Source of the DNA: Nemertoderma westbladi
Taxonomy: Eukaryota > Animalia > Xenacoelomorpha
Length of the DNA stretch: 38,543 nt
Direction of reading: 5' to 3'
Assembly: GCA_032718475.1 (NCBI GenBank)
Contig: JAUCBJ010001014.1
Location: forward strand, 1 to 38,543
The position numbers were made by a program, and so were the translations under genes. The notes beneath the pieces were generated by a model. The model ran no database searches and was not told the DNA's origin. It saw nothing but the letters and a program-made list of their open reading frames with translations. Numbering within the stretch: the first letter of the stretch is position 1; every line of letters starts with the position of its first letter. Below, one piece after another: positions 1,215 to 38,524 of this stretch.

Positions 1215-2065
1215 GCTTGGCACGATTTGTTGGAAACTGTAAGTCACGAACGGCCGCAGAGTCTGACGTTGTCCCGGGAGTGGGACGTCGGATCGGAGCA
1301 GTTCGAATGGGAGTTGGACCCGAGTGAGGGTCCCAGTCGCACGCGGCTGCGTCTACGACCCTCCAACGACCCCCCGTTGGCCTCCGCGTTCTATCTCCCG
1401 AACAAACGAACCCGACTCTCGAGCTCGGGGGTTTCCGACTCACATATCGACTATCTCTTCCGCGACTCGCCTCTCTCCCCGGACGCCTCCAACCTCCGGA
1501 ATAAACTCGTCACCCAGGAGGCCGCCGCTATCACCTACTCCGCCTACTGCACGCTGGTCACGCCATTCGCCGAATGCCGGCGAGAGTTCCTAATCGGCTC
1601 CAACGGGTTGTACTTCTTCCCGGAACACGACGAAGAAGTTATCAGATGCGAGTTCTCTTCGGTTCGCGAGATCCACAACCGGAGATACCTCCTCCGGGAC
1701 GTCGCCATGGAGATATTCCTAACGGACGGGCAGTCTCTACTTCTAGCCTTCGAATCTACAGATCAACGCGCCCAGGTCTACAAGCGAATCCTCGCCAACG
1801 AGCCGCCTTGTTTACTTAGCAACGACCAGAAGCTCTCCTTAGCAACAGCAGCCTGGCAACGAGGCGAGATAACAAACTTCGAGTATCTGACTCACGTAAA
1901 TAAATGCGCCGGACGAACGTTCAATGACCTCATGCAATATCCAGTGTTCCCATTCGTATTGGCCGATTACCATAGCAGCAGTTTGGATCTCAATAACACC
2001 AAAATTTACCGGAAACTCCACAAACCGATGCCAATTCAACACGAGAATAAAGAAGCTTACTTCCG
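1215..2065 (+). CDS. LYST: LYST-like exon A: pre-PH region, PH domain and start of BEACH
   Basis: Acceptor tttaAG at 1213-1214; reads [13 protein letters not shown]...[18 protein letters not shown]; donor GTTAGT at 2066 (phase 2). Overlaps ORF 1227..2090. Confidence 0.88.
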
Positions 2066-5000
2066 GTTAGTCAGTCCTACTTCCGGTTAGTGAAAACCCT
2101 ACTTCAGGGTAATAATAAGCTTACTTCCGTTTAGCTGAAGCTTACTTCCCCGGCTAGCCAGAAGCCTACTACCTGTTAGTTAGCAATAAGCTTGCCCCAG
2201 GACCTACTAGGATCGGCATGCTGCATTGCAGCTGCATTTTTAAGAATGCTGTGCCAGGCCCAGGTTAGCCAACAACGTACTTTCGGTTACTCAAGCTTAC
2301 TTCTGATTCCTCAGAAGCGCACTCTTACAATTCCCATTAAATTTCCTAATTTATAACTTTTAGGGAGAAATACCACGAAGTGGAAACATCTGACTGCGAC
2401 CCCATGGCCGAATTCGGGCCGTACCATTTCGGTTCGCTTTACAGTAACAGCGGGATTGTCTTACATTTCCTAATCCGGATGCTTCCATACACAAAGATGT
2501 TCCTTCGGTAAGTAACTTGCTACTTTCAACTAAAATATAGAACACATCGGAGCCTTTGGAGATGATGGTACATTAACAGTCACCTTTTCTAAATGCGTCC
2601 GGAGTTGGTTCGTTCGAAGGTTACGAGGTCTCATAGTCTTCCACACGACCAGTTCGGTTGGAATTCACAATTTACAAACTGCGGCACTCCTTAAAGCACC
2701 TTGTCCTGCTGTCCCTGACGAATTTGCCTCTAACTTTGTTTATTATTTATCATGTCCTTGTTGTAAGGAGTGACATGTTTGACACACCATCTAATATTTA
2801 TGTGGACGAGTTTTATACTGCCCCTGGATGGGACTACCAAAGATGGCAGCGAGCAAAGCGAGACTGTGCAGAAACACATCATACATGATACATCTAGGCG
2901 ATCCAATATACGTTGGCTTAGCAATTGGCAATCTTTAATGCCTGTTGTGAAAAAGATTGAAATGTATTATACGGTATAATATTCGCACATATCCCTATTC
3001 ATACTCCGGTATTTTTCTCCCCCGGGGGACTTTGAACTCATCTCCATTGACGTGCTTTGCACTTAGAGTCTTGATAGATTAGGGTGAAACCTTCCGATCA
3101 GCTGATCACTGTCACTTCTGGTCCCCTATTCTTATAACTGTCGGTTTATAAATTTACCTACCAGCTAGACCGTAAGAATACCGTAAGCGTACCTGTAAGA
3201 TAATTAATTAGTTACTTAATTATAATTATTGTTATCGTACATTTATATTGTTACGTCCTAATAAATTAATGTTGCTTAATTTCCTGTTTGCTTTAGTTAC
3301 CAGGACGACAACTTCGACCTTCCAGACAGAACGTTCCACAGTTTGGCGACGACATGGAGTCTTTCCTCTCGGGAGTCCAACACCGATGTAAAGGAACTCA
3401 TTCCGGAGTTCTTTATGATGCCGGAGTTCCTGGAGAACCAAAACGGTTTGTACATTCTATTTTACATTATCTTTACCGTAAAGCTGATCGAGTAACAAAT
3501 TATATACACATTTATTTATCTGATATTATTGGCTGCAGCTTATCAAATATTTTCCGTATAAATGGTGCTTTTGCTTTCTTTCGTTCTAGAATTTGATTTC
3601 GGTGTTCGTCAGAACGGTAAGACTATTGGGGACGTGGAACTCCCCCCATGGTGCCATGGCGACGCGAGGTTGTTTATACTGGTACACCGTCAGATCTTGG
3701 AGTCGAGTCATGTGTCGGGTCATCTTCATCACTGGATGGATCTCATATTCGGTTACAAACAGAAAGGTCGCGCAGCTGTTGATGCTATTAATTGCTTTAG
3801 ACCAATGGTATGTTTATGTAAAGCTTAGCATTGGTTTAGTATTGTAGTAACAGTAAGTATGAAAACTCTGAAACTTTTATCGCGGTTTTGGCTGGGTTTT
3901 GACTGATCGCGGTTTTGACTGGGTTATGGTTTAGCGCTAGATGGCGCTGAGATAGCTAGTTAGTCTATTTCTGTATATATTTATACAGTTTCACATATAG
4001 ACCCTCGCGCTGCCCGAATGCCCCACAACGTGTTACTTTGCGTAGATTGTATACAAACGATATTCGGATTAGGCTACACCTAACCGGTAGGGTGTTCTCT
4101 TATGGAATCAGATTTAATAACTATAATCTTTTTTGTTGTCGCAGTTGTATTACGGGTTGGATCTGGAAGCGATTAAAGATCCCAATGATCGTAAGGCTGT
4201 AGAAAGTATGATCAAATCGTACGGCCAAACACCTAAACAGTTGTTCGTTAACCAACATCCTAAGAGACAGGTGAGTGAGTGAGTGCGGTCAAACACATAA
4301 ACAGTTGTTCGTTAACCAACATCCTTAGAGACAGGTGAGTGAATGAGTACGGTCAAACACATAAACAGTTGTTCGTTAACCAACATCCCAAGAGACAGGT
4401 GAGTGAGTGAGTGCGGTCAAACACATAAACAGTTGTTCGTTAACCAACATCCTTAGAGACAGGTGAGTGAGTGAGTATACGGTCAAACACATAAACATTT
4501 GTTCGTTAACCAACATCCTTAGATACATCGGTGAGTGAGTGAGTACGGTCAAACACATAAACTGTTGTTCGTTAACCAACATCCTTAGAGACAGGTGAGT
4601 GAGTGAGTATACGGCCAAACACCTAAACAGTTGTTCGTTAACCAACATCCTAAGAGACAGGTGAGTGAGTGAGTATACGGTCAAACACATAAACAGTTGT
4701 TCGTTAACCAACATCCTTAGAGACATCGGTGAGTGAGTGAGTACGGTCAAACACATAAACAGTTGTTCGTTAACCAACATCCTTAGATACAGGTGAGTGA
4801 GTGAGTATACGGCCAAACACCTAAACAGTTGTTCGTTAACCAACATCCTAAGAGACAGGTGAGTGAGTGAGTATACGGTCAAACACATAAACAGTTGTTC
4901 GGTAACCAACATCCTTAGAGACAGGTGAGTGAGTGAGTACGGTCAAACACATAAACAGTTGTTCGTTAACCAACATCCCAAGAGACAGGTGAGTGAGTGA

Positions 5001-8000
5001 GTACGGTCAAACTCATAAACAGTTGTTCGGTAACCAACATCCTTAGAGACAGGTGAGTGAGTGAGTACGGTCAAACACATAAACAGTTGTTCGTTAACCA
5101 ACATCCCAAGAGACAGGTGAGTGAGTGAGTGCGGTCAAACACATAAACAGTTGTTCGTTAACCAACATCCTAAGAGACAGGTGAGTGAGTGAGTACGGTC
5201 AAACACATAAACAGTTGTTCGGTAACCAACATCCTTAGAGACAGGTGAGTGAGTGAGTACGGTCAAACACATAAACAGTTGTTCGTTAACCAACATCCCA
5301 AGAGACAGGTGAGTGAGTGAGTGCGGTCAAACACATAAACAGTTGTTCGTTAACCAACATCCTTAGAGACAGGTGAGTGAGTGAGTACGGTCAAACACAT
5401 AAACTGTTGTTCGTTAACCAACATCCTTAGAGACAGGTGAGTGAGTGAGTATACGGCCAAACACCTAAACAGTTGTTCGTTAACCAACATCCTAAGAGAC
5501 AGGTGAGTGAGTGAGTACGGTCAAACACATAAACAGTTGTTCGGTAACCAACATCCTTAGAGACAGGTGAGTGAGTGAGTACGGTCAAACACATAAACAG
5601 TTATTCGTTAACCAACATCCCAAGAGTCAGGTGAGTGAGTGAGTACGGTCAAACTCATAAACAGTTGTTCGGTAACCAACATCCTTAGAGACAGGTGAGT
5701 GAGTGAGTACGGTCAAACACATAAACAGTTGTTCGTTAACCAACATCCCAAGAGACAGGTGAGTGAGTGAGTATACGGTCAAACACATAAACTGTTGTTC
5801 GTTAACCAACATCCTTAGAGACAGGTGAGTGAGTGAGTATACGGCCAAACACCTAAACAGTTGTTCGTTAACCAACATCCTAAGAGACAGGTGAGTGAGT
5901 GAGTACGGTCAAACACATAAACAGTTGTTCGGTAACCAACATCCTTAGAGACAGGTGAGTGAGTGAGTATACGGCCAAACACCTAAACAGTTGTTCGTTA
6001 ACCAACATCCTAAGAGACAGGTGAGTGAGTGAGTACGGTCAAACACATAAACAGTTGTTCGGTAACCAACATCCTTAGAGACAGGTGAGTGAGTGAGTAT
6101 ACGGCCAAACACCTAAACAGTTGTTCGTTAACCAACATCCTAAGAGACAGGTGAGTGAGTGAGTACGGTCAAACACATAAACTGTTGTTCGTTAACCAAC
6201 ATCCTTAGAGACAGGTGAGTGAGTGAGTATACGGCCAAACACCTAAACAGTTGTTCGTTAACCAACATCCTAAGAGACAGGTGAGTGAGTGAGTACGGTC
6301 AAACACATAAACAGTTGTTCGGTAACCAACATCCTTAGAGACAGGTGAGTGAGTGAGTACGGTCAAACACATAAACAGTTGTTCGTTAACCAACATCCCA
6401 AGAGACAGGTGAGTGAGTGAGTACGGTCAAACTCATAAACAGTTGTTCGGTAACCAACATCCTTAGAGACAGGTGAGTGAGTGAGTACGGTCAAACACAT
6501 AAACAGTTGTTCGTTAACCAACATCCCAAGAGACAGGTGAGTGAGTGAGTGCGGTCAAACACATAAACAGTTGTTCGTTAACCAACATCCTAAGAGACAG
6601 GTGAGTGAGTGAGTACGGTCAAACACATAAACAGTTGTTCGGTAACCAACATCCTTAGAGACAGGTGAGTGAGTGAGTACGGTCAAACACATAAACAGTT
6701 GTTCGTTAACCAACATCCCAAGAGACAGGTGAGTGAGTGAGTGCGGTCAAACACATAAACAGTTGTTCGTTAACCAACATCCTTAGAGACAGGTGAGTGA
6801 GTGAGTACGGTCAAACACATAAACTGTTGTTCGTTAACCAACATCCTTAGAGACAGGTGAGTGAGTGAGTATACGGCCAAACACCTAAACAGTTGTTCGT
6901 TAACCAACATCCTAAGAGACAGGTGAGTGAGTGAGTACGGTCAAACACATAAACAGTTGTTCGGTAACCAACATCCTTAGAGACAGGTGAGTGAGTGAGT
7001 ACGGTCAAACACATAAACAGTTATTCGTTAACCAACATCCCAAGAGTCAGGTGAGTGAGTGAGTACGGTCAAACTCATAAACAGTTGTTCGGTAACCAAC
7101 ATCCTTAGAGACAGGTGAGTGAGTGAGTACGGTCAAACACATAAACAGTTGTTCGTTAACCAACATCCCAAGAGACAGGTGAGTGAGTGAGTATACGGTC
7201 AAACACATAAACAGTTGTTCGTTAACCAACATCCCAAGAGACAGGTGAGTGAGTGAGTACGGTCAAACTCATAAACAGTTGTTCGGTAACCAACATCCTT
7301 AGAGACAGGTGAGTGAGTGAGTACGGTCAAACACATAAACAGTTGTTCGTTAACCAACATCCCAAGAGACAGGTGAGTGAGTGAGTACGGTCAAACTCAT
7401 AAACAGTTGTTCGGTAACCAACATCCTTAGAGACAGGTGAGTGAGTGAGTACGGTCAAACACATAAACAGTTGTTCGTTAACCAACATCCCAAGAGACAG
7501 GTGAGTGAGTGAGTACGGTCAAACACATAAACAGTTGTTCGTTAACCAACATCCTTAGAGACATCGGTGAGTGAGTGAGTACGGTCAAACACATAAACAG
7601 TTATTCGTTAACCAACATCCTAAGAGACAGGTGAGTGAGTGAGTACGGTCAAACACATAAACAGTTGTTCGTTAACCAACATCCCAAGAGACAGGTGAGT
7701 GAGTGAGTACGGTCAAACTCATAAACAGTTGTTCGGTAACCAACATCCTTAGAGACAGGTGAGTGAGTGAGTACGGTCAAACACATAAACAGTTGTTCGT
7801 TAACCAACATCCCAAGAGACAGGTGAGTGAGTGAGTACGGTCAAACTCATAAACAGTTGTTCGGTAACCAACATCCTTAGAGACATCGGTGAGTGAGTGA
7901 GTACGGTCAAACTCATAAACAGTTGTTCGGTAACCAACATCCCAAGAGACAGGTGAGTGAGTGAGTACGGTCAAACTCATAAACAGTTGTTCGGTAACCA

Positions 8001-11000
8001 ACATCCTTAGAGACAGGTGAGTGAGTGAGTACGGTCAAACACATAAACAGTTGTTCGTTAACCAACATCCTTAGAGACATCGGTGAGTGAGTGAGTACGG
8101 TCAAACTCATAAACAGTTGTTCGGTAACCAACATCCCAAGAGACAGGTGAGTGAGTGAGTACGGTCAAACTCATAAACAGTTGTTCGGTAACCAACATCC
8201 TTAGAGACAGGTGAGTGAGTGAGTACGGTCAAACACATAAACAGTTGTTCGTTAACCAACATCCTAAGAGACAGGTGAGTGAGTGAGTACGGTCAAACAC
8301 ATTAACCAAACAGTTGTTCGGTAACCAACATCCTTAGAGACAGGTGAGTGAGTGAGTACGGTCAAACACATAAACAGTTGTTCGTTAACCAACATCCTTA
8401 GAGACATCGGTGAGTGAGTGAGTACGGTCAAACTCATTAACCAAACAGTTGTTCGGTAACCAACATCCTTAGAGACAGGTGAGTGAGTGAGTACGGTCAA
8501 ACACATAAACAGTTGTTCGGTAACCAACATCCTTAGAGACATCGGTGAGTGAGTGAGTACGGTCAAACACATAAACAGTTGTTCGGTAACCAACATCCTT
8601 AGAGACATCGGTGAGTGAGTGAGTACGGTCAAACACATAAACAGTTGTTCGTTAACCAACATCCTTATAGAGACATCGGTGAGTGAGTGAGTACGGTCAA
8701 ACACATAAACAGTTGTTCGTTAACCAACATCCTTAGAGACAGGTGAGTGAGTGAGTACGGTCAAACACATAAACAGTTGTTCGTTAACCAACATCCCAAG
8801 AGACAGGTGAGTGAGTGAGTACGGTCAAACTCATAAACAGTTGTTCGGTAACCAACATCCTTAGAGACAAGTGAGTGAGTGAGTACGGTCAAACACATAA
8901 ACAGTTGTTCGTTAACCAACATCCCAAGAGACAGGTGAGTGAGTGAGTACGGTCAAACACATAAACAGTTGTTCGTTAACCAACATCCTTAGAGACATCG
9001 GTGAGTGAGTGAGTACGGTCAAACTCATAAACAGTTGTTCGGTAACCAACATCCTTAGAGACAGGTGAGTGAGTGAGTACGGTCAAACACATAAACAGTT
9101 GTTCGTTAACCAACATCCCAAGAGACAGGTGAGTGAGTGAGTACGGTCAAACACATAAACAGTTGTTCGGTAACCAACATCCTTAGAGACATCGGTGAGT
9201 GAGTGAGTACGGTCAAACACATAAACGGTTGTTCGTTAACCGACATCCCAAGAGACAGGTGAGTGAGTGAGTACGGTCAAACACCTAAACAGTTGTTCGT
9301 TAACCGACATCCTTAGAGACATCGGTGAGTGAGTGAGTACGGTCAAACACATAAACAGTTGTTCGTTAACCAACATCCTTATAGAGACATCGGTGAGTGA
9401 GTGAGTACGGTCAAACACATAAACAGTTGTTCGTTAACCAACATCCTTAGAGACAGGTGAGTGAGTGAGTACGGTCAAACTCATAAACAGTTGTTCGTTA
9501 ACCAACATCCTAAGAGACAGGTGAGTGAGTGAGTACGGTCAAACACATAAACAGTTATTCGTTAACCAACATCCTTAGAGACAGGTGAGTGAGTGAGTAC
9601 GGTCAAACACATAAACAGTTATTCGTTAACCAACATCCCAAGAGACAGGTGAGTGAGTGAGTACGGTCAAACACATAAACAGTTGTTCGGTAACCAACAT
9701 CCTTACAGACATCGGTGAGTGAGTGAGTACGGTCAAACACATAAACAGTTGTTCGGTAACCAACATCCTTAGAGACATCGGTGAGTGAGTGAGTACGGTC
9801 AAACACATAAACAGTTGTTCGTTAACCAACATCCTTAGAGACAGGTGAGTGAGTGAGTACGGTCAAACTCATAAACAGTTGTTCGTTAACCAACATCCTA
9901 AGAGACAGGTGAGTGAGTGAGTACGGTCAAACACATAAACAGTTATTCGTTAACCAACATCCTTAGAGACAGGTGAGTGAGTGAGTACGGTCAAACACAT
10001 AAACAGTTATTCGTTAACCAACATCCCAAGAGACAGGTGAGTGAGTGAGTACGGTCAAACACATAAACAGTTGTTCGTTAACCAACATCCTTAGAGACAG
10101 GTGAGTGAGTGAGTACGGTCAAACACATAAACAGTTATTCGTTAACCAACATCCTTAGAGACAGGTGAGTGAGTGAGTACGGTCAAACACATAAACAGTT
10201 ATTCGTTAACCAACATCCCAAGAGACAGGTGAGTGAGTGAGTACGGTCAAACACATAAACAGTTGTTCGGTAACCAACATCCTAAGAGACAGGTGAGTGA
10301 GTGAGTACGGTCAAACACATAAACAGTTATTCGTTAACCAACATCCTTAGAGACAGGTGAGTGAGTGAGTACGGTCAAACACATAAACAGTTATTCGTTA
10401 ACCAACATCCCAAGAGACAGGTGAGTGAGTGAGTACGGTCAAACACATAAACAGTTGTTCGGTAACCAACATCCTTAGAGACATCGGTGAGTGAGTGAGT
10501 ACGGTCAAACACATAAACAGTTGTTCGGTAACCAACATCCTTATAGAGACATCGGGAGTGAGTGAGTACGGCCAAACACATAACAGTTGTTCGTTAACCA
10601 ACATCCTTAGAGACATCGGTGAGTGAGTGAGTACGGTCAAACACATAAACAGTTGTTCGTTAACCAACATCCTTAGAGACATCGGTGAGTGAGTGAGTAC
10701 GGCCAAACACATAAACAGTTGTACGTTAACCAACATCCTTATAGAGACATCGGGAGTGAGTGAGTACGGTCAAACACATAAACAGTTGTTCGTTAACCAA
10801 CATCCTTATAGAGACATCGGGAGTGAGTGAGTACGGTCAAACACATAAACAGTTGTACGTTAACCAACATCCTTATATAGAGACATCGGTGAGTGAGTGA
10901 GTACGGTCAAACACATAAACAGTTGTTCGTTAACCAACATCCTTATAGAGACATCGGTGAGTGAGTGAGTATACGGTCAAACACATAAACAGTTGTTCGT

Positions 11001-14000
11001 TAACCAACATCCTTAGAGACATCGGTGAGTGAGTGAGTACGGTCAAACACATAAACAGTTGTTCGTTAACCAACATCCTTAGAGACATCGGTGAGTGAGT
11101 GAGTACGGTCAAACACATAAACAGTTGTTCGTTAACCAACACCCTTAGAGACAGGTGAGTGAGTGAGTACGGTCAAACACATAAACAGTTGTTCGTTAAC
11201 CAACACCCTTAGAGACATCGGGAGTGAGTGAGTACGGTCAAACACATAAACAGTTGTTCGTTAACCAACATCCTTAGAGACATCGGTGAGTGAGTGAGTA
11301 CGGTCAAACACATAAACAGTTGTTCGTTAACCAACATCCTTAGAGACATTGGTGAGTGAGTGAGTATACGGTCAAACACATAAACAGTTGTTCGTTAACC
11401 AACATCCTTAGAGACATCGGTGAGTGAGTGAGTATACGGTCAAACACATAAACAGTTGTTCGTTAGCCAACATCCTTAGAGACATCGGTGAGTGAGTGAG
11501 TACGGTCAAACACACAAACAGTTGTTCGTTAACCAACATCCTTAGAGACATCGGTGAGTGAGTGAGTACGGTCAAACTCATAAACAGTTGTTCGTTAACC
11601 AACATCCTTAGAGACATTGGTGAGTGAGTGAGTATACGGTCAAACACATAAACAGTTGTTCGTTAACCAACATCCTTAGAGACATTGGTGAGTGAGTGAG
11701 TATACGGTCAAACACCTAAACAGTTGTTCGTTAACCAACATCCTTAGAGACATCGGTGAGTGAGTGAGTACGGTCAAACTCATAAACAGTTGTTCGTTAA
11801 CCAACATCCTTAGAGACATCGGTGAGTGAGTGAGTACGGTCAAACACATAAACAGTTGTTCGTTAACCAACATCCTTAGAGACATCGGTGAGTGAGTGAG
11901 TATACGGTCAAACACATAAACAGTTGTTCGTTAACCAACATCCTTAGAGACATCGGTGAGTGAGTGAGTATACGGTCAAACACATAAACAGTTGTTCGTT
12001 AACCAACATCCTTATAGAGACATCGGGAGTGAGTGAGTACGGTCAAACACATAAACAGTTGTTCGTTAACCAACATCCTTATAGAGACATCGGGAGTGAG
12101 TGAGTACGGTCAAACACATAAACAGGTGTTCGTTAACCAACACCCTTAGAGACAGGTGAGTGAGTGACTATACGGTCAAACACATAAACAGTTGTACGTT
12201 AACCAACATCCTTATAGAGACATCGGGAGTGAGTGAGTACGGCCAAACACATAAACAGTTGTTCGTTAACCAACACCCTTAGAGACAGGTGAGTGAGTGA
12301 GTATACGGTCAAACACATAAACAGTTGTTCGTTAACCAACATCCTTATAGAGACATCGGTGAGTGAGTGAGTACGGTCAAACACATAAACAGTTGTTCGT
12401 TAACCAACATCCTTAGAGACATCGGTGAGTGAGTGAGTATACGGTCAAACACATAAACAGTTGTTCGTTAACCAACATCCTTAGAGACATCGGTGAGTGA
12501 GTGAGTATACGGTCAAACACATAAACAGTTGTACGTTAACCAACATCCTTATAGAGACATCGGGAGTGAGTGAGTACGGTCAAACACATAAACAGTTGTT
12601 CGTTAACCAACATCCTTATAGAGACATCGGTGAGTGAGTGAGTACGGTCAAACACATAAACAGTTGTACGTTAACCAACATCCTTATAGAGACATCGGAA
12701 GTGAGTGAGTACGGTCAAACACATAAACAGTTGTTCGTTAACCAACATCCTTAGAGACAGGTGAGTGAGTGAGTATACGGTCAAACACATAAACAGTTGT
12801 ACGTTAACCAACATCCTTATAGAGACATCGGTGAGTGAGTGAGTATACGGTCAAACACATAAACAGTTGTACGTTAACCAACATCCTTAGAGATAGGTGA
12901 GTGAGAGAGTACGGTCAAACACATAAACAGTTGTACGTTAACCAACATCCTTATAGAGACATCGGGAGTGAGTGAGTACGGTCAAACACATAAACAGTTG
13001 TTCGTTAACCAACATCCTTAGAGACATCGGTGAGTGAGTGAGTATACGGTCAAACACATAACAGTTGTTCGTTAACCAACATCCTTATAGAGACATCGGT
13101 GAGTGAGTGAGTACGGTCAAACACATAAACAGTTGTACGTTAACCAACATCCTTATAGAGACATCGGGAGTGAGTGAGTACGGTCAAACACATAAACAGT
13201 TGTACGTTAACCAACATCCTTATAGAGACATCGGGAGTGAGTGAGTACGGTCAAACACATAAACAGTTGTTCGTTAACCAACATCCTTAGAGACAGGTGA
13301 GTGAGTGAGTACGGTCAAACACATAAACAGTTGTTCGTTAACCAACATCTTTAGAGACATCGGTGAGTGAGTGAGTACGGTCAAACACATAAACAGTTGT
13401 TCGTTAACCAACATCCTTAGATACATCGGTGAGTGAGTGAGTACGGTCAAACACATAACAGTTGTTCGTTAACCAACATCCTTATAGAGACATCGGTGAG
13501 TGAGTGAGTACGGTCAAACACATAAACAGTTGTACGTTAACCAACATCCTTATAGAGACATCGGGAGTGAGTGAGTACGGTCAAACACATAAACAGTTGT
13601 TCGTTAACCAACATCCTTAGAGACAGGTGAGTGAGTGAGTATACGGTCAAACACATAAACAGTTGTTCGTTAACCAACATCCTTAGAGACATCGGTGAGT
13701 GAGTGAGTACGGTCAAACACATAAACAGTTGTTCGTTAACCAACATCCTAAGAGACATCGGTGACTGAGTGAGTATACGGTCAAACACATAAACAGTTGT
13801 ACGTTAACCAACATCTTTATAGAGACATCGGTGAGTGAGTGAGTATACGGTCAAACACATAAACAGTTGTTCGTTAACCAACATCCTTAGAGACATCGGT
13901 GAGTGAGTGAGTATACGGTCAAACACCTAAACAGTTGTTCGTTAACCAACATCCTTAGAGACATCGGTGAGTGAGTGAGTACGGTCAAACACATAAACAG

Positions 14001-17000
14001 TTGTTCGTTAACCAACACCCTTAGAGACAAGTGAGTGAGTGAGTATACGGTCAAACACATAAACAGTTGTTCGTTAACCAACACCCTTAGAGACATCGGT
14101 GAGTGAGTGAGTATACGGTCAAACACATAAACAGTTGTTCGTTAACCAACATCCTTAGAGACATCGGTGAGTGAGTGAGTATACGGTCAAACACATAAAC
14201 AGTTGTTCGTTAACCAACTTCCTTAGAGACATCGGTGAGTGAGTGAGTACGGTCAAACACATAAACAGTTGTTCGTTAACCAACACCCTTAGAGACAGGT
14301 GAGTGAGTGAGTATACGGTCAAACACATAAACAGTTGTACGTTAACCAACATCCTTATAGAGACATCGGGAGTGAGTGAGTACGGCCAAACACATAACAG
14401 TTGTTCGTTAACCAACATCCTTAGAGACATCGGTGAGTGAGTGAGTACGGTCAAACACATAAACAGTTGTTCGTTAACCAACATCCTTAGAGACATCGGT
14501 GAGTGAGTGAGTACGGCCAAACACCTAAACAGTTGTACGTTAACCAACATCCTTATAGAGACATCGGGAGTGAGTGAGTACGGTCAAACACATAAACAGT
14601 TGTTCGTTAACCAACACCCTTAGAGACAAGTGAGTGAGTGAGTATACGGTCAAACACATAAACAGTTGTTCGTTAACCAACACCCTTAGAGACAAGTGAG
14701 TGAGTGAGTGAGTACGGTCAAACACATAAACAGTTGTTCGTTAACCAACATCCTTATAGAGACATCGGGAGTGAGTGAGTACGGTCAAACACATAAACAG
14801 TTGTTCGTTAACCAACATCCTTATAGAGACATCGGGAGTGAGTGAGTACGGTCAAACACATAAACAGTTGTACGTTAACCAACATCCTTATAGAGACATC
14901 GGGAGTGAGTGAGTACGGTCAAACACATAAACAGTTGTACGTTAACCAACATCCTTATAGAGACATCGGGAGTGAGTGAGTACGGTCAAACACATAAACA
15001 GTTGTTCGTTAACCAACACCCTTAGAGACAAGTGAGTGAGTGAGTATACGGTCAAACACATAAACAGTTGTACGTTAACCAACATCCTTATAGAGACATC
15101 GGGAGTGAGTGAGTACGGTCAAACACATAAACAGTTGTACGTTAACCAACATCCTTATAGAGACATCGGGAGTGAGTGAGTACGGTCAAACACATAAACA
15201 GTTGTTCGTTAACCAACATCCTTAGAGACATCGGTGAGTGAGTGAGTACGGCCAAACACATAAACAGTTGTACGTTAACCAACATCCTTATAGAGACATC
15301 GGGAGTGAGTGAGTACGGTCAAACACATAAACAGTTGTTCGTTAACCAACACCCTTAGAGACATCGGTGAGTGAGTGAGTATACGGTCAAACACATAAAC
15401 AGTTGTTCGTTAACCAACATCCTTAGAGACATCGGTGAGTGAGTGAGTATACGGTCAAACACATAAACAGTTGTACGTTAACCAACATCCTTATAGAGAC
15501 ATCGGGAGTGAGTGAGTACGGTCAAACACATAAACAGTTGTTCGTTAACCAACACCCTTAGAGACAGGTGAGTGAGTGAGTATACGGTCAAACACATAAA
15601 CAGTTGTACGTTAACCAACATCCTTATAGAGACATCGGGAGTGAGTGAGTACGGTCAAACACATAAACAGTTGTTCGTTAACCAACATCCTTAGAGACAT
15701 CGGTGAGTGAGTGAGTACGGTCAAACACATAAACAGTTGTTCGTTAACCAACATCCTTAGAGACATCGGTGAGTGAGTGAGTATACGGTCAAACACATAA
15801 ACAGTTGTACGTTAACCAACATCCTTATAGAGACATCGGGAGTGAGTGACTACGGTCAAACACATAAACAGTTGTTCGTTAACCAACACCCTTAGAGACA
15901 GGTGAGTGAGTGAGTATACGGTCAAACACATAAACAGTTGTACGTTAACCAACATCCTTATAGAGACATCGGGAGTGAGTGAGTACGGCCAAACACATAA
16001 ACAGCTGTACGTTAACCAACATCCTTATAGAGACATCGGTGAGTGAGTGAGTACGGTCAAACACATAAACAGTTGTTCGTTAACCAACATCCTTAGAGAC
16101 ATTGGTGAGTGAGTGAGTATACGGTCAAACACATAAACAGTTGTTCGTTAACCAACATCCTTAGAGACATCGGTGAGTGAGTGAGTATACGGTCAAACAC
16201 ATAAACAGTTGTTCGTTAACCAACATCCTTAGAGACATCGGTGAGTGAGTGAGTATACGGTCAAACTCATAAACAGTTGTTCGTTAACCAACATCCTTAG
16301 ATACATCGGTGAGTGAGTGAGTATACGGTCAAACACCTAAACAGTTGTTCGGTAACCAACATCCTTAGAGACGTCGGTGAGTGAGTGAGTACGGCCAAAC
16401 ACATAACAGTTGTTCGTTAACCAACATCCTTAGAGACATCGGTGAGTGAGTGAGTATACGGTCAAACACATAAACAGTTGTTCGTTAACCAACATCCTTA
16501 GATACATCGGTGAGTGAGTGAGTATACGGTCAAACACATAAACAGTTGTTCGTTAACCAACATCCTTAGAGACATCGGTGAGTGAGTGAGTACGGTCAAA
16601 CACGTAAACAGTTGTTCGTTAACCAACACCCTTAGAGACAGGTGAGTGAGTGAGTATACGGTCAAACACATAAACAGTTGTACGTTAACCAACATCCTTA
16701 TAGAGACATCGGGAGTGAGTGAGTACGGCCAAACACATAAACAGTTGTTCGTTAACCAACAACCTTATAGAGACATCGGGAGTGAGTGAGTACGGCCAAA
16801 CACATAAACAGTTGTTCGTTAACCAACATCCTTATAGAGACATCGGGAGTGAGTGAGTACGGCCAAACACATAACAGTTGTTCGTTAACCAACATCCTTA
16901 GAGACATCGGTGAGTGAGTGAGTACGTCAAACACATAAACAGTTGTTCGTTAACCAACATCCTTAGAGACATCGGTGAGTGAGTGAGTACGGCCAAACAC

Positions 17001-20000: not shown

Positions 20001-23000
20001 GTGAGTACGGTCAAACACATAAACAGTTGTTCGTTAACCAACATCCTTATAGAGACATCGGTGAGTGAGTGAGTACGGTCAAACACATAAACAGTTGTAC
20101 GTTAACCAACATCCTTATAGAGACATCGGGAGTGAGTGAGTACGGTCAAACACATAAACAGTTGTTCGTTAACCAACATCCTTAGAGACAGGTGAGTGAG
20201 TGAGTATACGGTCAAACACATAAACAGTTGTACGTTAACCAACATCCTTATAGAGACATCGGTGAGTGAGTGAGTATACGGTCAAACACATAAACAGTTG
20301 TACGTTAACCAACATCCTTAGAGATAGGTGAGTGAGAGAGTACGGTCAAACACATAAACAGTTGTACGTTAACCAACATCCTTATAGAGACATCGGGAGT
20401 GAGTGAGTACGGTCAAACACATAAACAGTTGTTCGTTAACCAACATCCTTAGAGACATCGGTGAGTGAGTGAGTATACGGTCAAACACATAACAGTTGTT
20501 CGTTAACCAACATCCTTATAGAGACATCGGTGAGTGAGTGAGTACGGTCAAACACATAAACAGTTGTACGTTAACCAACATCCTTATAGAGACATCGGGA
20601 GTGAGTGAGTACGGTCAAACACATAAACAGTTGTACGTTAACCAACATCCTTATAGAGACATCGGGAGTGAGTGAGTACGGTCAAACACATAAACAGTTG
20701 TTCGTTAACCAACATCCTTAGAGACAGGTGAGTGAGTGAGTACGGTCAAACACATAAACAGTTGTTCGTTAACCAACATCTTTAGAGACATCGGTGAGTG
20801 AGTGAGTACGGTCAAACACATAAACAGTTGTTCGTTAACCAACATCCTTAGATACATCGGTGAGTGAGTGAGTACGGTCAAACACATAACAGTTGTTCGT
20901 TAACCAACATCCTTATAGAGACATCGGTGAGTGAGTGAGTACGGTCAAACACATAAACAGTTGTACGTTAACCAACATCCTTATAGAGACATCGGGAGTG
21001 AGTGAGTACGGTCAAACACATAAACAGTTGTTCGTTAACCAACATCCTTAGAGACAGGTGAGTGAGTGAGTATACGGTCAAACACATAAACAGTTGTTCG
21101 TTAACCAACATCCTTAGAGACATCGGTGAGTGAGTGAGTACGGTCAAACACATAAACAGTTGTTCGTTAACCAACATCCTAAGAGACATCGGTGACTGAG
21201 TGAGTATACGGTCAAACACATAAACAGTTGTACGTTAACCAACATCTTTATAGAGACATCGGTGAGTGAGTGAGTATACGGTCAAACACATAAACAGTTG
21301 TTCGTTAACCAACATCCTTAGAGACAGGTGAGTGAGTGAGTACGGTCAAACTCATAAACAGTTGTTCGTTAACCAACATCCTTAGATACATCGGTGAGTG
21401 AGTGAGTACGGTCAAACACATAAACAGTTGTTTGTTAACCAACATCCTTAGAGACAGGTGAGTGAGTGAGTACGGTCAAACTCATAAACAGTTGTTCGTT
21501 AACCAACATCCTTAGAGACATCGGTGAGTGAGTGAGTATACGGTCAAACACATAAACAGTTGTTCGTTAACCAACATCCTTAGAGACATCGGTGAGTGAG
21601 TGAGTACGGTCAAACACATAAACAGTTGTTCGTTAACCAACATCCTTAGAGACATCGGTGAGTGAGTGAGTATACGGTCAAACACATAAACAGTTGTTCG
21701 TTAACCAACATCTTTAGAGACATCGGTGAGTGAGTGAGTACGGTCAAACACATAAACAGTTGTTCGTTAACCAACATCCTTAGATACATCGGTGAGTGAG
21801 TGAGTACGGTCAAACACATAACAGTTGTTCGTTAACCAACATCCTTATAGAGACATCGGTGAGTGAGTGAGTACGGTCACACACATAAACAGTTGTTCGT
21901 TAACCAACATCCTTAGAGACAGGTGAGTGAGTGAGTATACGGTCAAACACATAAGCAGTTGTTCGTTAACCAACATCCTTATAGAGACATCGGTGAGTGA
22001 GTGAGTACGGTCAAACACATAAACAGTTGTACGTTAACCAACATCCTTATAGAGACATCGGGAGTGAGTGAGTACGGTCAAACACATAAACAGTTGTTCG
22101 TTAACCAACATCCTTAGAGACAGGTGAGTGAGTGAGTATACGGTCAAACACATAAACAGTTGTTCGTTAACCAACATCCTTAGAGACATCGGTGAGTGAG
22201 TGAGTACGGTCAAACACATAAACAGTTGTACGTTAACCAACATCTTTATAGAGACATCGGTGAGTGAGTGAGTATACGGTCAAACACATAAACAGTTGTT
22301 CGTTAACCAACATCTTTAGAGACATCGGTGAGTGAGTGAGTACGGTCAAACACATAAACAGTTGTTCGTTAACCAACATCCTTAGATACATCGGTGAGTG
22401 AGTGAGTACGGTCAAACACATAACAGTTGTTCGTTAACCAACATCCTTATAGAGACATCGGTGAGTGAGTGAGTACGGTCAAACACATAAACAGTTGTTC
22501 GTTAACCAACATCCTTTAGACAGGTGAGTGAGTGAGTATACGGTCAAACACATAAGCAGTTGTTCGTTAACCAACATCCTTAGAGACATCGGTGAGTGAG
22601 TGAGTATACGGTCAAACACATAAACAGTTGTTCGTTAACCAACATCCTTAGAGACATCGGTGAGTGAGTGAGTACGGTCAAACACATAAACAATTGTTCG
22701 TTAACCAACATCCCAAGAGACAGGTGAGTGAGTGAGTACGGTCAAACACATAAACAGTTGTTCGTTAACCAACATCCTTAGAGACATCGGTGAGTGAGTG
22801 AGTACGGTCAAACACATAAACAGTTGTTCGTTAACCAACATCCTTAGAGACATCGGTGAGTGAGTGAGTACGGTCAAACACATAAACAGTTGTTCGTTAA
22901 CCAACATCCTTAGAGACATCGGTGAGTGAGTGAGTACGGTCAAACACATAAACAGTTGTTCGTTAACCAACACCCTTAGAGACAGGTGAGTGAGTGAGTA

Positions 23001-26000
23001 TACGGTCAAACACATAAACAGTTGTACGTTAACCAACATCCTTATAGAGACATCGGGAGTGAGTGAGTACGGCCAAACACATAAACAGTTGTTCGTTAAC
23101 CAACACCCTTAGAGACAGGTGAGTGAGTGAGTATACGGTCAAACACATAAACAGTTGTACGTTAACCAACATCCTTATAGAGACATCGGGAGTGAGTGAG
23201 TACGGCCAAACACATAACAGTTGTTCGTTAACCAACATCCTTATAGAGACATCGGTGAGTGAGTGAGTACGGTCAAACACATAAACAGTTGTTCGTTAAC
23301 CAACATCCTTAGAGACATCGTTGAGTGAGTGAGTATACGGTCAAACACATAAACAGTTGTTCGTTAACCAACACCCTTAGAGACAGGTGAGTGAGTGAGT
23401 ACGGTCAAACACATAAACAGTTGTTCGTTAACCAACATCCTTAGAGACATCGGTGAGTGAGTGAGTACGGTCAAACACATAAACAGTTGTTCGTTAACCA
23501 ACATCCTTAGAGACATCGGTGAGTGAGTGAGTACGGTCAAACACATAAACAGTTGTTCGTTAACCAACATCCTTAGAGACATCGGTGAGTGAGTGAGTAT
23601 ACGGTCAAACACATAAACAGTTGTACGTTAACCAACATCCTTAGAGACAGGTGAGTGAGTGAGTACGGTCAAACACATAAACAGTTGTTCGTTAACCAAC
23701 ATCCTTAGAGACATCGGTGAGTGAGTGAGTACATTCAAACTCATAAACAGTTGTTTGTTAACCAACATCCTGAGAGACAGGTGAGTGAGTGAGTATACGG
23801 TCAAACACATAAACAGTTGTTCGTTAACCAACATCCTTAGAGACATCGGTGAGTGAGTGAGTACGGTCAAACACATAAACAGTTGTTCGTTAACCAACAT
23901 CCTTAGAGACATCGGTGAGTGAGTGAGTATACGGTCAAACACATAAACAGTTGTTCGTTAACCAACATCCTTAGAGACATCGGTGAGTGAGTGAGTACGG
24001 TCAAACACATAAACAGTTGTACGTTAACCAACATCCTTATAGAGACATCGGGAGTGAGTGAGTACGGTCAAACACATAAACAGTTGTTCGTTAACCAACA
24101 TCCTTAGAGACATCGGTGAGTGAGTGAGTACATTCAAACTCATAAACAGTTGTTTGTTAACCAACATCCTGAGAGACAGGTGAGTGAGTGAGTATACGGT
24201 CAAACACATAAACAGTTGTTCGTTATTCAACATCCTGAGAGACAGGTGAGTGAGTGAGTATACGGTCAAACACATAAACAGTTGTTCGTTAACCAACATC
24301 CTTAGAGACATCGGTGAGTGAGTGAGTATACGGTCAAACACATAAACAGTTGTTCGTTAACCAACATCCTTAGAGACATCGGTGAGTGAGTGAGTACGGT
24401 CAAACACATAAACAGTTGTACGTTAACCAACATCCTTATAGAGACATCGGGAGTGAGTGAGTACGGCCAAACACATAACAGTTGTTCGTTAACCAACATC
24501 CTTATAGAGACATCGGTGAGTGAGTGAGTACGGTCAAACACATAAACAGTTGTTCGTTAACCAACATCCTTAGAGACATCGGTGAGTGAGTGAGTATACG
24601 GTCAAACACATAAACAGTTGTTCGTTAACCAACACCCTTAGAGACATCGGTGAGTGAGTGAGTACATTCAAACTCATAAACAGTTGTTTGTTAACCAACA
24701 TCCTGAGAGACAGGTGAGTGAGTGAGTATACGGTCAAACACATAAACAGTTGTTCGTTAACCAACATCCTTAGAGACATCGGTGAGTGAGTGAGTACGGC
24801 CAAACACATAAACAGTTGTTCGTTAACCAACATCCTTATAGAGACATCGGTGAGTGAGTGAGTACGGCCAAACACATAAACAGTTGTTCGTTAACCAACA
24901 GCCTTAGAGACATCGGTGAGTGAGTGAGTATACGGTCAAACACATAAACAGTTGTTCGTTAACCAACATCCTTAGAGACATCGGTGAGTGAGTGAGTATA
25001 CGGTCAAACACATTTATGTGTTTGACCGTATACTCACTCACAACTGTTTATAAACAGTTGTTCGTTAACCAACATCCTTATAGAGACATCGGTGAGTGAG
25101 TGAGTACGGTCAAACACTTAAACAGTTGTACGTTAACCAACATCCTTAGAGACATCGGTGAGTGAGTGAGTATACGGTCAAACACATAAACAGTTGTTCG
25201 TTAACCAACATCCTTAGAGACATCGGTGAGTGAGTGAGTACGGTCAAACACATAAACAGTTGTACGTTAACCAATATCCTTAGAGACATCGGTGAGTGAG
25301 TGAGTATACGGTCAAACACATAAACAGTTGTACGTTAACCAACATCCTTAGAGACATCGGTGAGTGAGTGAGTACGGTCAAACACATAAACAGTTGTACG
25401 TTAACCAACATCCTTAGAGACAGGTGAGTGAGTGAGTACGGTCAAACACATAAACAGTTGTTCGTTAACCAACATCCTGAGAGACAGGTGAGTGAGTGAG
25501 TATACGGTCAAACACATAAACAGTTGTTCGTTAACCAACATCCTTAGAGACATCGGTGAGTGAGTGAGTACGGTCAAACTCATAAACAGTTGTTCGTTAA
25601 CCAACATCCTGAGAGACAGGTGAGTGAGTGAGTATACGGTCAAACACATAAACAGTTGTTCGTTAACCAACATCCTTAGAGACATCGGTGAGTGAGTGAG
25701 TACGGTCAAACTCATAAACAGTTGTTCGTTAACCAACATCCTTAGAGACATCGGTGAGTGAGTGAGTATACGGTCAAACACATAAACAGTTGTTCGTTAA
25801 CCAACATCCTTAGAGACATCGGTGAGTGAGTGAGTACGGTCAAACTCATAAACAGTTGTTCGTTAACCAACATCCTTATATAGAGACATCGGTGAGTGAG
25901 TGAGTATACGGTCAAACACATAAACAGTTGTTCGTTAACCAACATCCTTAGAGACATCGGTGAGTGAGTGAGTACGGTCAAACTCATAAACAGTTGTTCG

Positions 26001-29000
26001 TTAACCAACATCCTGAGAGACAGGTGAGTGAGTGAGTATACGGTCAAACACATAAACAGTTGTTCGTTAACCAACATCCTTAGAGACATCGGTGAGTGAG
26101 TGAGTACGGTCAAACTCATAAACAGTTGTTCGTTAACCAACATCCTTAGAGACATCGGTGACTGAGTGAGTATACGGTCAAACACATAAACAGTTGTTCG
26201 TTAACCAACATCCTTAGAGACATCGGTGAGTGAGTGAGTACGGTCAAACTCATAAACAGTTGTTCGTTAACCAACATCCTTATATAGAGACATCGGTGAG
26301 TGAGTGAGTATACGGTCAAACACATAAACAGTTGTTCGTTAACCAACATCCTTATAGAGACATCGGTGAGTGAGTGAGTACGGTCAAACACATAAACAGT
26401 TGTACGTTAACCAACATCCTTAGAGACATCGGTGAGTGAGTGAGTACGGTCAAACTCATAAACAGTTGTTCGTTAACCAACATCCTGAGAGACAGGTGAG
26501 TGAGTGAGTATACGGTCAAACACATAAACAGTTGTTCGTTAACCAACATCCTTAGAGACATCGGTGAGTGAGTGAGTACGGTCAAACACATAAACAGTTG
26601 TTCGTTAACCAACATCCTTAGAGACATCGGTGAGTGAGTGAGTATACGGTCAAACACATAAACAGTTGTTCGTTAACCAACATCCTTTATAGAGACATCG
26701 GTGAGTGAGAGAGTACGTTCAAACACATAAACAGTTGTTCGTTAACCAACATCCTTAGATACATCGGTGAGTGAGTGAGTACGGTCATACACATAAACAG
26801 TTGTTCGTTAACCAACATCCTTAGAGACATCGGTGAGTGAGTGAGTACGGTCAAACACATAAACAGTTGTTCGTTAACCAACATCCTTATAGAGACATCG
26901 GTGAGTGAGTGAGTACGGTCAAACACATAAACAGTTGTTCGTTAACCAACATCCTTAGAGACATCGGTGAGTGAGTGAGTACATTCAAACTCATAAACAG
27001 TTGTTTGTTAACCAACATCCTGAGAGACAGGTGAGTGAGTGAGTATACGGTCAAACACATAAACAGTTGTTCGTTAACCAACATCCTGAGAGACAGGTGA
27101 GTGAGTGAGTATACGGTCAAACACATAAACAGTTGTTCGTTAACCAACATCCTTAGAGACATCGGTGAGTGAGTGAGTATACGGTCAAACACATAAACAG
27201 TTGTTCGTTAACCAACATCCTTAGAGACATCGGTGAGTGAGTGAGTACGGTCAAACACATAAACAGTTGTACGTTAACCAACATCCTTATAGAGACATCG
27301 GGAGTGAGTGAGTACGGCCAAACACATAACAGTTGTTCGTTAACCAACATCCTTATAGAGACATCGGTGAGTGAGTGAGTACGGTCAAACACATAAACAG
27401 TTGTTCGTTAACCAACATCCTTAGAGACATCGGTGAGTGAGTGAGTATACGGTCAAACACATAAACAGTTGTTCGTTAACCAACACCCTTAGAGACAGGT
27501 GAGTGAGTGAGTACGGTCAAACACATAAACAGTTGTTCGTTAACCAACATCCTTAGAGACATCGGTGAGTGAGTGAGTACATTCAAACTCATAAACAGTT
27601 GTTTGTTAACCAACATCCTGAGAGACAGGTGAGTGAGTGAGTATACGGTCAAACACATAAACAGTTGTTCGTTAACCAACATCCTTAGAGACATCGGTGA
27701 GTGAGTGAGTACGGCCAAACACATAAACAGTTGTTCGTTAACCAACATCCTTATAGAGACATCGGTGAGTGAGTGAGTACGGCCAAACACATAAACAGTT
27801 GTTCGTTAACCAACAGCCTTAGAGACATCGGTGAGTGAGTGAGTATACGGTCAAACACATAAACAGTTGTTCGTTAACCAACATCCTTAGAGACATCGGT
27901 GAGTGAGTGAGTATACGGTCAAACACATTTATGTGTTTGACCGTATACTCACTCACAACTGTTTATAAACAGTTGTTCGTTAACCAACATCCTTATAGAG
28001 ACATCGGTGAGTGAGTGAGTACGGTCAAACACATAAACAGTTGTACGTTAACCAACATCCTTAGAGACATCGGTGAGTGAGTGAGTATACGGTCAAACAC
28101 ATAAACAGTTGTACGTTAACCAACATCCTTAGAGACATCGGTGAGTGAGTGAGTACGGTCAAACACATAAACAGTTGTACGTTAACCAACATCCTTAGAG
28201 ACATCGGTGAGTGAGTGAGTATACGGTCAAACACATAAACAGTTGTACGTTAACCAACATCCTTAGAGACAGGTGAGTGAGTGAGTACGGTCAAACACAT
28301 AAACAGTTGTTCGTTAACCAACATCCTGAGAGACAGGTGAGTGAGTGAGTATACGGTCAAACACATAAACAGTTGTTCGTTAACCAACATCCTTAGAGAC
28401 ATCGGTGAGTGAGTGAGTACGGTCAAACTCATAAACAGTTGTTCGTTAACCAACATCCTGAGAGACAGGTGAGTGAGTGAGTATACGGTCAAACACATAA
28501 ACAGTTGTTCGTTAACCAACATCCTTAGAGACATCGGTGAGTGAGTGAGTACGGTCAAACTCATAAACAGTTGTTCGTTAACCAACATCCTTAGAGACAT
28601 CGGTGAGTGAGTGAGTATACGGTCAAACACATAAACAGTTGTTCGTTAACCAACATCCTTAGAGACATCGGTGAGTGAGTGAGTACGGTCAAACTCATAA
28701 ACAGTTGTTCGTTAACCAACATCCTTATATAGAGACATCGGTGAGTGAGTGAGTATACGGTCAAACACATAAACAGTTGTTCGTTAACCAACATCCTTAG
28801 AGACATCGGTGAGTGAGTGAGTACGGTCAAACTCATAAACAGTTGTTCGTTAACCAACATCCTGAGAGACAGGTGAGTGAGTGAGTATACGGTCAAACAC
28901 ATAAACAGTTGTTCGTTAACCAACATCCTTAGAGACATCGGTGAGTGAGTGAGTACGGTCAAACTCATAAACAGTTGTTCGTTAACCAACATCCTTAGAG

Positions 29001-32000
29001 ACATCGGTGAGTGAGTGAGTATACGGTCAAACACATAAACAGTTGTTCGTTAACCAACATCCTTAGATACATCGGTGAGTGAGTGAGTACGGTCAAACTC
29101 ATAAACAGTTGTTCGTTAACCAACATCCGTATATAGAGACATCGGTGAGTGAGTGAGTATACGGTCAAACACATAAACAGTTGTTCGTTAACCAACATCC
29201 TTATAGAGACATCGGTGAGTGAGTGAGTACGGTCAAACACATAAACAGTTGTACGTTAACCAACATCCTTAGAGACATCGGTGAGTGAGTGAGTACGGTC
29301 AAACTCATAAACAGTTGTTCGTTAACCAACATCCTGAGAGACAGGTGAGTGAGTGAGTATACGGTCAAACACATAAACAGTTGTTCGTTAACCAACATCC
29401 TTAGAGACATCGGTGAGTGAGTGAGTACGGTCAAACACATAAACAGTTGTTCGTTAACCAACATCCTTAGAGACATCGGTGAGTGAGTGAGTATACGGTC
29501 AAACACATAAACAGTTGTTCGTTAACCAACATCCTTTATAGAGACATCGGTGAGTGAGAGAGTACGTTCAAACACATAAACAGTTGTTCGTTAACCAACA
29601 TCCTTAGATACATCGGTGAGTGAGTGAGTACGGTCATACACATAAACAGTTGTTCGTTAACCAACATCCTTAGAGACATCGGTGAGTGAGTGAGTACGGT
29701 CAAACACATAAACAGTTGTTCGTTAACCAACATCCTTATAGAGACATCGGTGAGTGAGTGAGTACGGTCAAACACATAAACAGTTGTTCGTTAACCAACA
29801 TCCTTATAGAGACATCGGTGAGTGAGTGAGTACGGCCAAACACATAAACAGTTGTTCGTTAACCAACATCCTTAGAGACATCGGTGAGTGAGTGAGTACG
29901 GTCAAACACATAAACAGTTGTTCGTTAACCAACATCCTTAGAGACATCGGTGAGTGAGTGAGTACGGTCAAACACATAAACAGTTGTTCGTTAACCAACA
30001 TCCTTATAGAGACATCGGTGAGTGAGTGAGTACGGTCAAACACCTAAACAGTTGTTCGTTAACCAACATCCTTAGAGACATCGGTGAGTGAGTGAGTACG
30101 GTCAAACACATAAGCAGTTGTTCGTTAACCAACATCCTTAGAGACATCGGTGAGTGAGTGAGTACGGTCAAACACCTAAACAGTTGTTCGTTAACCAACA
30201 TCCCAAGAGACAGGTGAGTGAGTGAGTACGGTCAAACACCTAAACAGTTGTTCGTTAACCAACATCCCAAGAGACAGGTGAGTGAGTGAGTACGGTCAAA
30301 CCCATAAACAGTTGTTCGTTAACCAACATCCCAAGAGACAGGTGAGTGAGTGAGTACGGTCAAACACATAAACAGTTGTTCGTTAACCAACATCCCAAGA
30401 GTCAGGCGAGTGAGTGAGTACGGTCAAACACATAAACAGTTGTTCGTTAACCAACATCCTTAGAGACAGGTGAGTGAGTGAGTACGGTCAAACACATAAA
30501 CAGTTGTTCGTTAACCAACATCCCAAGAGACAGGTGAGTGAGTGAGTACGGTCAAACACATAAACAGTTGTTCGTTAACCAACATCCCAAGAGTCAGGCG
30601 AGTGAGTGAGTACGGTCAAACACATAAACAGTTGTTCGTTAACCAACATCCCAAGAGACAGGTGAGTGAATATAAAATAACTTAACTAAACGACGTTCAA
30701 ATCTAGAAGATTAATTAGCGGTAGGGTCTTAGTCAATTACATTTTCTTCAATTCAATTACATATCATGCCAATTCAATTAAATTCGATATTACATCTGTA
30801 ATTCGTGATCAAAAATAATAATTACCGCGGTAATAATTTGCCTATCTAACCGCTATTTATTTCATTTATTGTTAGGTACAGCAAAAGATTGACGAATTGT
30901 CGAGCCACGGGAAATCCTCATGTAACATTAAACCTTTGTGGGACGTGTTCGGATTGAATTGGGGCCAATACGTTGGTAGGTTTGTTGCTTTATGCCAATA
31001 TGTCGGTAGGTTTGTCGATATGACAATATATCGGTAAGTTTGTTGCTATGACAATATATCGGCAAGTTTGTTGCTACGCCAATATATCGGTAAGATTATT
31101 GATATGCCTATATAGCGGCAGGTTTGTTGCTATGCCAACGGCAAATTTATTATCTTTAAATTCATTTAGGTTCTCCTGGAATGCCTGACCCTCAGGTTGT
31201 TTGGCACACGTTGTGCAAAAAAACAATTGCCCGCTTGGTTGCCTTGGAAACTGGGGAAATGGTAGGGCTCTCAGACAGTGTACATCTACTAGTCGCATAC
31301 AGTTACAGTAACGGTGAGTTCCATACATACAATTCGATGGTGTTTTATTTTTATCATAACCACTCAACACTCAAAAACCTAATTGTTCAGGGGAGCATTT
31401 TTCTACAAGTCCCCTATGGTACCTAAGAGATAATTTTTGGTTTCATAAGGTAAAACACCACAATTAGGATTTGTAGTGACATTTAACCAATTTATCGATG
31501 TTTTCTTAGGATTTGAGTGGTTATGCAAAATGTTTTCACTTAAATTGTGATTTTTCATAACGACATATCTATTAATATGTTAGGCATACGAACAAAACAA
31601 TCAGTGAAATCTGTCCGAGACAGTCTTTTCATGAACTGCTAACTATCTTTCCTCCTATCCATCACCTTCGGCTCCATAAAACCTGGACTTCATGACCAAT
31701 TCAGTGCATTGTTTGAACAAACACAATTACCGGTATTCAATTAAATGTCAATTAAAAATGTAAAATATTTATTTAATCTGAAATCTGAAAAATTAGTCAT
31801 GTAAAGAAGTACTTATAGTAGTTACAATTCGAATTTCCCGCCCATTGATAGTATATTGAGTCTGTAAGGGACGAATTTTAATCACCATCTCCTTATCTGT
31901 AATGATGGGCTATGGGTTTAAGTGGTTATGAAAAAAAAGCCGTTTCCCTTGACTTAATGTAAAATTGGCATTTGAGTGGTTATGCAATTTTCTGAAATGC

Positions 32001-35152: not shown

Positions 35153-35182
<30 letters not shown>
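35153..35182. repeat. Poly-G tract (30 G)
   Basis: Directly visible homopolymer. Confidence 0.9.
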
Positions 35183-38503: not shown

Positions 38504-38524
38504 GGGGGGGGGGGGGGGGGGGGG
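38504..38524. repeat. Poly-G tract (21 G)
   Basis: Directly visible homopolymer. Confidence 0.9.

Follow-up and report, generated by a model that had tools for sequence, protein, structure and literature searches.

The DNA analysed here (the window) is a contig of 38,543 nucleotides from the xenacoelomorph Nemertoderma westbladi (JAUCBJ010001014.1, forward strand, assembly GCA_032718475.1). It contains the 3' part of a LYST-like gene in which the intron between exons E and F is occupied by a tandem array of the gene's own exon end and 5' splice site (Table 1). There are no N bases in the window. The 11 exons, joined across GT..AG introns, hold an open frame of 856 codons followed by a stop. 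Matches to the Pfam domains PH_BEACH, Beach or WD40 were obtained for five of the six exon pieces tested, the exon J piece giving none, and the gene model shares 42-43% identity with LYST-named proteins across residues 2-854. Protein searches returned no close relative, the best match among representatives being 46% over exon A. Judged by its predicted protein, the gene is an animal LYST-like gene. The nine introns other than E-F comprise seven of 108-337 nt and two of 789 and 1544 nt; an earlier reading made from the letters of the window only (the sequence-only reading) had placed most of them at about 110-340 nt, which describes the seven but misses the two longer ones. The donors of exons A, I and J (three of ten) begin GTTAGT and most acceptors end in TAG, which may be a lineage trait.

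Table 1. Positions of the gene, its exons, the enlarged intron and the tandem repeats in the window
Feature	Position	Strand	Remarks
18-bp array, x 55 or more	1..996	+	38/55 units identical, hold G|GTAAG
3' part of LYST-like PH-BEACH-WD40 gene (predicted)	1215..34229	+	11 exons
Exon A	1215..2065	+	
Second, decayed donor-junction repeat, about 22 bp, exon A donor	2052..2315	+	6 later probe copies; TRF 2058-2139
Exon B	2364..2507	+	
Exon C	3297..3445	+	
Exon D	3590..3807	+	
Exon E, 126 nt	4145..4270	+	BEACH domain end; Pfam Beach E=9.5e-08; donor at 4271 used
Tandem array, 398 units, 64-72 bp	4219..30669	+	TRF and anchor counting
Intron E-F, 26,605 nt	4271..30875	+	GT..AG, phase 0
Fold-back (inverted) insertion within unit	25013..25049	.	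identical second copy 27928-27964, 2,915 bp further on
Last donor copy with unique 214-nt intron tail	30662..30875	+	T-rich acceptor; likely ancestral intron
Exon F, 100 nt	30876..30975	+	
Third donor-junction repeat, 28 bp x 6.2, exon F donor	30964..31138	+	TRF; 2 probe matches
Exon G	31170..31313	+	
Exon H	32858..32997	+	
Exon I	33191..33432	+	
Exon J	33541..33801	+	
Exon K	34033 to stop at about 34227	+	

Each repeat unit joins the terminal 51-52 nt of exon E (4219/4220-4270) to a donor run of the form (GTGA)n. Unit 1 is the real exon E end, such that the exon boundary at 4270 falls within it. Tandem Repeats Finder (TRF) reported a period of 66 in three stretches (4219-25013, 25050-27928 and 27965-30669), and counting by an anchor gave 398 units, with intervals of 64-72 bp in 395 of 397 cases and of 106 bp in the other two. 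These data bear out the sequence-only description of some 400 copies of a 66-bp unit combining the exon E end with its 5' splice site, at the positions then given, as well as its forecast of a HpaI ladder: 362 HpaI sites are present and 330 of the 361 intervals between them are of monomer size (64-72 bp). Both 106-bp units are accounted for by the fold-back insertions at 25013 and 27928, which are identical, could form a hairpin of about 25 bp and mark the duplication of a 2.9-kb block. Translation continued past exon E into the array meets an in-frame TGA after three codons, confirming the stop predicted for read-through of the first donor, and the longest open frame on the + strand within the array is at most 47 codons. 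Neither AATAAA nor ATTAAA occurs in the array. An exact search of metagenome contigs with a 26-nt piece of the unit gave 0 matches. Beyond the last unit the intron continues as unique sequence, and the distance from the last donor copy to the acceptor is 214 nt, the length of unique intron that had been noted before. In comparison with homologues, the E-F junction falls between two conserved stretches, within a linker whose length varies.

Evidence on splicing comes from six sequencing runs, none of which is on record as RNA. One of them, X3, is automatically labelled 'DNA?' but is read here as a transcriptome because its contig omits every intron. In this contig, 4,789 nt long and with a depth of 92.1, all ten introns are missing, each with GT..AG borders, and window positions 4270 and 30876 lie next to each other, at contig positions 1103 and 1102. 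Over 4144-4272 it shows 0 differences from the window and thus carries the letters of the first copy, and the part left unmatched upstream of the last unit is unique exon E sequence. The mRNA therefore contains the exon end once and is spliced from exon E at the first donor. No other X3 contig was found on the unit, and the depth over 4260-4269 (92.1) equals that of the main contig. The gene is thus intact, its first donor is used and exons E and F are joined as 4270^30876. The sequence-only reading, in which the gene looked intact on both sides of the array, stood to fall if no transcript linked exon E to exon F; with 856 open codons and the 4270^30876 join in hand, it stands.

The copies have diverged considerably from the junction that is used. 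The mean distance of a unit from the real junction is 4.6 events; the motif CAG|GTGAG is kept in 133 of 398 units and TCG|GTGAG is found in 191, while 52 of 398 lack a GT at the junction, with later GTGAGT words retained. Among 397 array units there are 113 distinct sequences. An exact 51-nt match to the exon end occurs in nine copies including the real one, all before 6923 and hence within the first 2.7 kb. The sequence-only description of the decoys as near-identical is therefore exaggerated. In 376 of 398 units the proline codon within the conserved GQTP stretch is altered, showing that the copies are free of coding constraint. The array contains nested block duplications: twelve runs of 5-17 units are repeated exactly 1.1-7.4 kb further on, while 100 shufflings of the unit order gave no such run longer than 4 units. 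Average divergence from the real exon is 3.0-3.2 events among the first 50 units, rises to 4.7-5.4 in the middle and is 4.1 among the last 23, and the first and last units differ at three places. In lancelet 'mirages', tandem copies of exon-intron boundaries, the edge units are likewise closest to the exon (PMC3087553). With its recurring blocks and its edge units nearer the exon, the array interior looks evolved.

This turnover bears on whether the array, although real, has had its length inflated by the assembly, or whether most of the copies lie elsewhere in the genome. One 17-unit block is an exact adjacent duplicate (18222-19363 and 19363-20504), as might be produced by such an error, but the 113 unit variants with their positional gradients argue for genuine sequence. 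The DNA runs point the same way. In X1 and X2 the unique contigs end at 4255 and start again at 30640 or 30623, entering the first and last unit, respectively. Four estimates of the summed contig depth of the unit relative to the flanks gave 406 and 684 in X1 and 417 and 418 in X2; three of these lie at 406-418, near 398, although such ratios are too rough for comparing alleles, do not constitute a copy number and would be raised by unit copies elsewhere in the genome. Both runs are flagged as possible sources of the window, yet X2 differs from it at flank sites and shows the same excess of depth. The ratios thus roughly support hundreds of copies without showing that all reside at this locus, and an inflated or largely dispersed array is very unlikely. 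In X1, one contig skips 270 bp at 32212-32483 and the flank depth alternates between about 10 and 17-23, a pattern suggestive of an individual heterozygous for a polymorphic insertion.

Two functional explanations of the array were weighed against its tolerance as an inert repeat. In the first, the array tunes LYST output: use of later donors, or of those displaced by +4 or +8 within the GTGA run, would lead to a stop and to destruction of the transcript, with the length or edge sequence of the array setting expression. The opportunity is considerable, as the array contains 1,115 GTGAGT hexamers and, besides the real exon end, eight exact copies of it no more than 2.7 kb away, and the human 6-16 and CBS genes do use their two nearest pseudo-sites (PMC1557585). 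No X3 contig lies on array units or carries an extended exon E, however, although minor use could escape contigs, and the free drift of the copies, with 113 distinct units, is not what such a function would lead one to expect; tuning is accordingly rated quite unlikely.

In the second, the CAG|GTGAG units would serve as recursive (ratchet) sites, the donor being rebuilt at each step of a stepwise removal that ends in the same mRNA. The end product would be indistinguishable from that of one-step splicing, the AG|GT junction is kept in 133 of 398 units, and most units contain about 20 nt upstream a TTAAC that presumably resembles the branch-point consensus. The pyrimidine tract expected before the AG was, by contrast, not found: no AG of the array is preceded by more than 7 T in the 18 positions from -20 to -3, compared with 9-15 T at each of the 11 real acceptors. 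In the common units, moreover, two other AGs lie at most 7 nt upstream of the CAG, and the loss of the CAG|GTGAG junction from 265 of 398 units argues against selection to keep it. Recursive removal is therefore considered very unlikely.

Most probably the array is a minisatellite whose unit joins the exon E end to its donor; slippage and unequal exchange would have expanded an intron of ~0.2 kb, and use of the first donor would make the expansion tolerable. It would then belong to a known type of repeat, likely without harm to the gene and set apart by its unusual size. The unique tail of 214 nt carries the acceptor (13 T of 18 positions), which shows that the intron predates the array and was enlarged by it. 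Together with the intact, spliced gene, this tail with its own acceptor upholds the sequence-only proposal that an ordinary intron was enlarged by amplification of its donor junction. The ancestral length of ~0.2 kb is inferred; nine related loci were found, all of them distant, and none could be used as the intron of a sister species. Intron gain through tandem duplication of an exonic AG|GT (the Rogers model, as given in PMC3087553) was also considered and rejected, the acceptor being supplied by the unique tail.

The process may have begun with a short duplication across the donor, possibly aided by the (GTGA)n run and by a TA match at the joint between units. Such a duplication would have been harmless because the upstream copy stayed joined to exon E, whose acceptor is 126 nt away, and slippage and unequal exchange could then have lengthened the array. 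The first donor would prevail as the sole one paired with a real upstream acceptor, at a distance of 126 nt, and as the one transcribed first. The copies, which lack an acceptor of their own, would not be defined as exons, so that later donors would be ignored, and any transcript spliced from one of these would include an in-frame stop and probably undergo nonsense-mediated decay. Masking of the nearby decoys in hairpins was examined as a further means of protection and is unsupported: the first four units gave z = 1.07, and 168 of 200 shuffles fold equally well.

Several points, besides the roughness of the depth ratios, weigh against this account. The acceptor test is a crude count of T on 11 sites. 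The decoys are not obviously weak, and the TCG|GTGAGT copies in particular look usable because five of the ten real donors of the gene are CG|GT. In a gene with introns of 108-337 nt, one might expect splice sites to be paired across the intron, to the advantage of the last donor, which is 214 nt from the acceptor. The scanning result for the human F7 gene discussed below comes solely from mammalian cells (PMC1557585). The RNA evidence consists of one assembled contig from one sample; an assembly loses rare variants, and products that have decayed are hidden in steady-state RNA, so that the contig gives no rate of mis-splicing. X3, finally, is a third sample with no DNA run listed, and the animal need not carry the long allele.

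Repeats of donor junctions are not confined to intron E-F. A 16-nt junction probe was compared with the following intron for ten donors and ten acceptors, with shuffled sequence as control. It recurred at three of ten donors and at no acceptor, with 6 matches for A-B, 21 for E-F (first 1.5 kb) and 2 for F-G against shuffle means of 0.02, 0.50 and 0.00, respectively; the difference between donors and acceptors does not reach significance (Fisher two-sided, about 0.21). At all three repeat-bearing introns the X3 contig uses the first donor. The 18-bp array at the start of the window is probably, on weak grounds, a fourth repeat of this kind, derived from an exon upstream of the window. In the phase required by exon A, the 12 nt before the GT of its unit read N-V-R-L, the best of 14 stop-free cuts on the + strand when compared with homologues, and starfish LYST has D-V-R-S at this place. 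Against this assignment, one cut on the - strand scored higher, and 5.7% of the 4-mers of the model score equally high.

That three of ten introns, and probably also the upstream one, carry 6 to 398 copies of their donor junction, with none at acceptors, raises the possibility of a genome-wide, donor-biased process in this lineage that turns introns of 0.2 kb into introns of tens of kb. This generalization is tentative and, on present evidence, more doubtful than not. If it were true, the genome would offer a natural titration of first-donor commitment by a compact-intron spliceosome, possibly with stepwise removal of the largest arrays.

Other repetitive elements lie in and around the gene. 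Within the donor repeat of intron A-B, a 52-bp piece at 2204-2255 has been inserted that comes from a very high-copy dispersed element. The bin covering it has a depth of 409,741 in X1 and 689,824 in X2, against 10-25 in the flanks; it shows numerous distinct loose ends and a flank resembling (TAC)n, and there is no second copy in the window. Intron G-H contains an element of about 810 bp (31331-32141) with perfect terminal inverted repeats of 18 bp and a DNA depth of 240-720 in most bins compared with 10-36 in the flanks; by its terminal repeats and depth it resembles a miniature inverted-repeat transposable element. Downstream of the gene, on the - strand, 35600-36771 holds broken reverse-transcriptase frames, with RVT_1 found in two of the three pieces tested, and looks like a decayed retrotransposon lacking long terminal repeats (non-LTR). 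Two runs of G, at 35153-35182 (30 bases) and 38504-38525 (about 22), may be real or sequencing artefacts.

The array belongs to a known kind of repeat, exemplified by the donor minisatellites of human genes and by the lancelet mirages. In intron 7 of human F7, a variable number tandem repeat of 37 bp is present in 5-9 copies, and mutagenesis showed that the most upstream donor is chosen although the others are functional; once that donor is lost, the next copy takes its place. Among the further cases described in the same source, 6-16 (IFI6) has 25 pseudo-sites of which the two nearest are also used, CBS has 15-20 units of which two are also used, and LMNB2 and PDGF use the first donor only (Borensztajn et al. 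2006, PMC1557585). The present array shares three features with F7: its unit 1 contains the border between exon and intron, donor copies follow in the intron, and splicing starts from the donor furthest upstream. It differs in having 398 copies rather than the 5-9 of F7, or the at most 26 sites of the cases cited there, in including ~52 exon bases per unit where F7 has 4, and in residing in a gene whose other introns measure 0.1-1.5 kb.

Lancelet mirages, known from Adh3, the globins BflGb6 and BflGb9, troponin C and PGBD5, are likewise copies of exon-intron boundaries in an invertebrate that leave normal splicing undisturbed (PMC3087553, PMC3902484). They resemble the array in that the edges are excluded from homogenization, with mirage units of 10-160 bp. 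The BflGb6 mirage has 3-6 units, although the numbers for Adh3 and in the supplement of PMC3087553 may be larger. Mirages occur at acceptors too (PMC3087553), whereas the three, probably four, repeats found here are all at donors. The array thus shares with F7-type repeats and mirages the head-to-tail minisatellite units, a first unit spanning the boundary, later units that are donor-like, use of the upstream donor and turnover in blocks; with recursive splice sites it shares the AG|GT junctions of 133 of 398 units but not the pyrimidine tract before the AG. The surprise over donor choice implied in the sequence-only reading is misplaced to this extent, as use of the first donor has already been published for F7, LMNB2 and PDGF (PMC1557585) and mirages leave splicing undisturbed (PMC3087553, PMC3902484).

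Large introns built of repeats are known in other settings. Those of the Drosophila Y-linked genes kl-3 and kl-5 are filled with simple satellites unrelated to the exon, whereas the repeat described here is the gene's own splice junction. The kl-3 and kl-5 introns are gigantic, extending over megabases, and resemble intron E-F in being enlarged mostly by tandem repeats (PMC6508621, PMC11207136). A literature search with limited journal coverage found no paper describing donor arrays with copies in the hundreds.

The array gives no indication of a new molecular function. It does serve as a warning for gene predictors, which could choose the last donor or split the gene, and it provides a good natural test, outside mammals, of exon definition or of first-come commitment to a donor. 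The choice of the first donor can hold at about 400 copies and over 26 kb, in a gene whose other introns are short and despite a decoy 214 nt from the acceptor. What sets the locus apart from the F7-type minisatellites and the lancelet mirages is thus the clustering of donor repeats in one gene and the size of the array, which exceeds the published cases, of at most 26 sites in the sources available, by more than tenfold.

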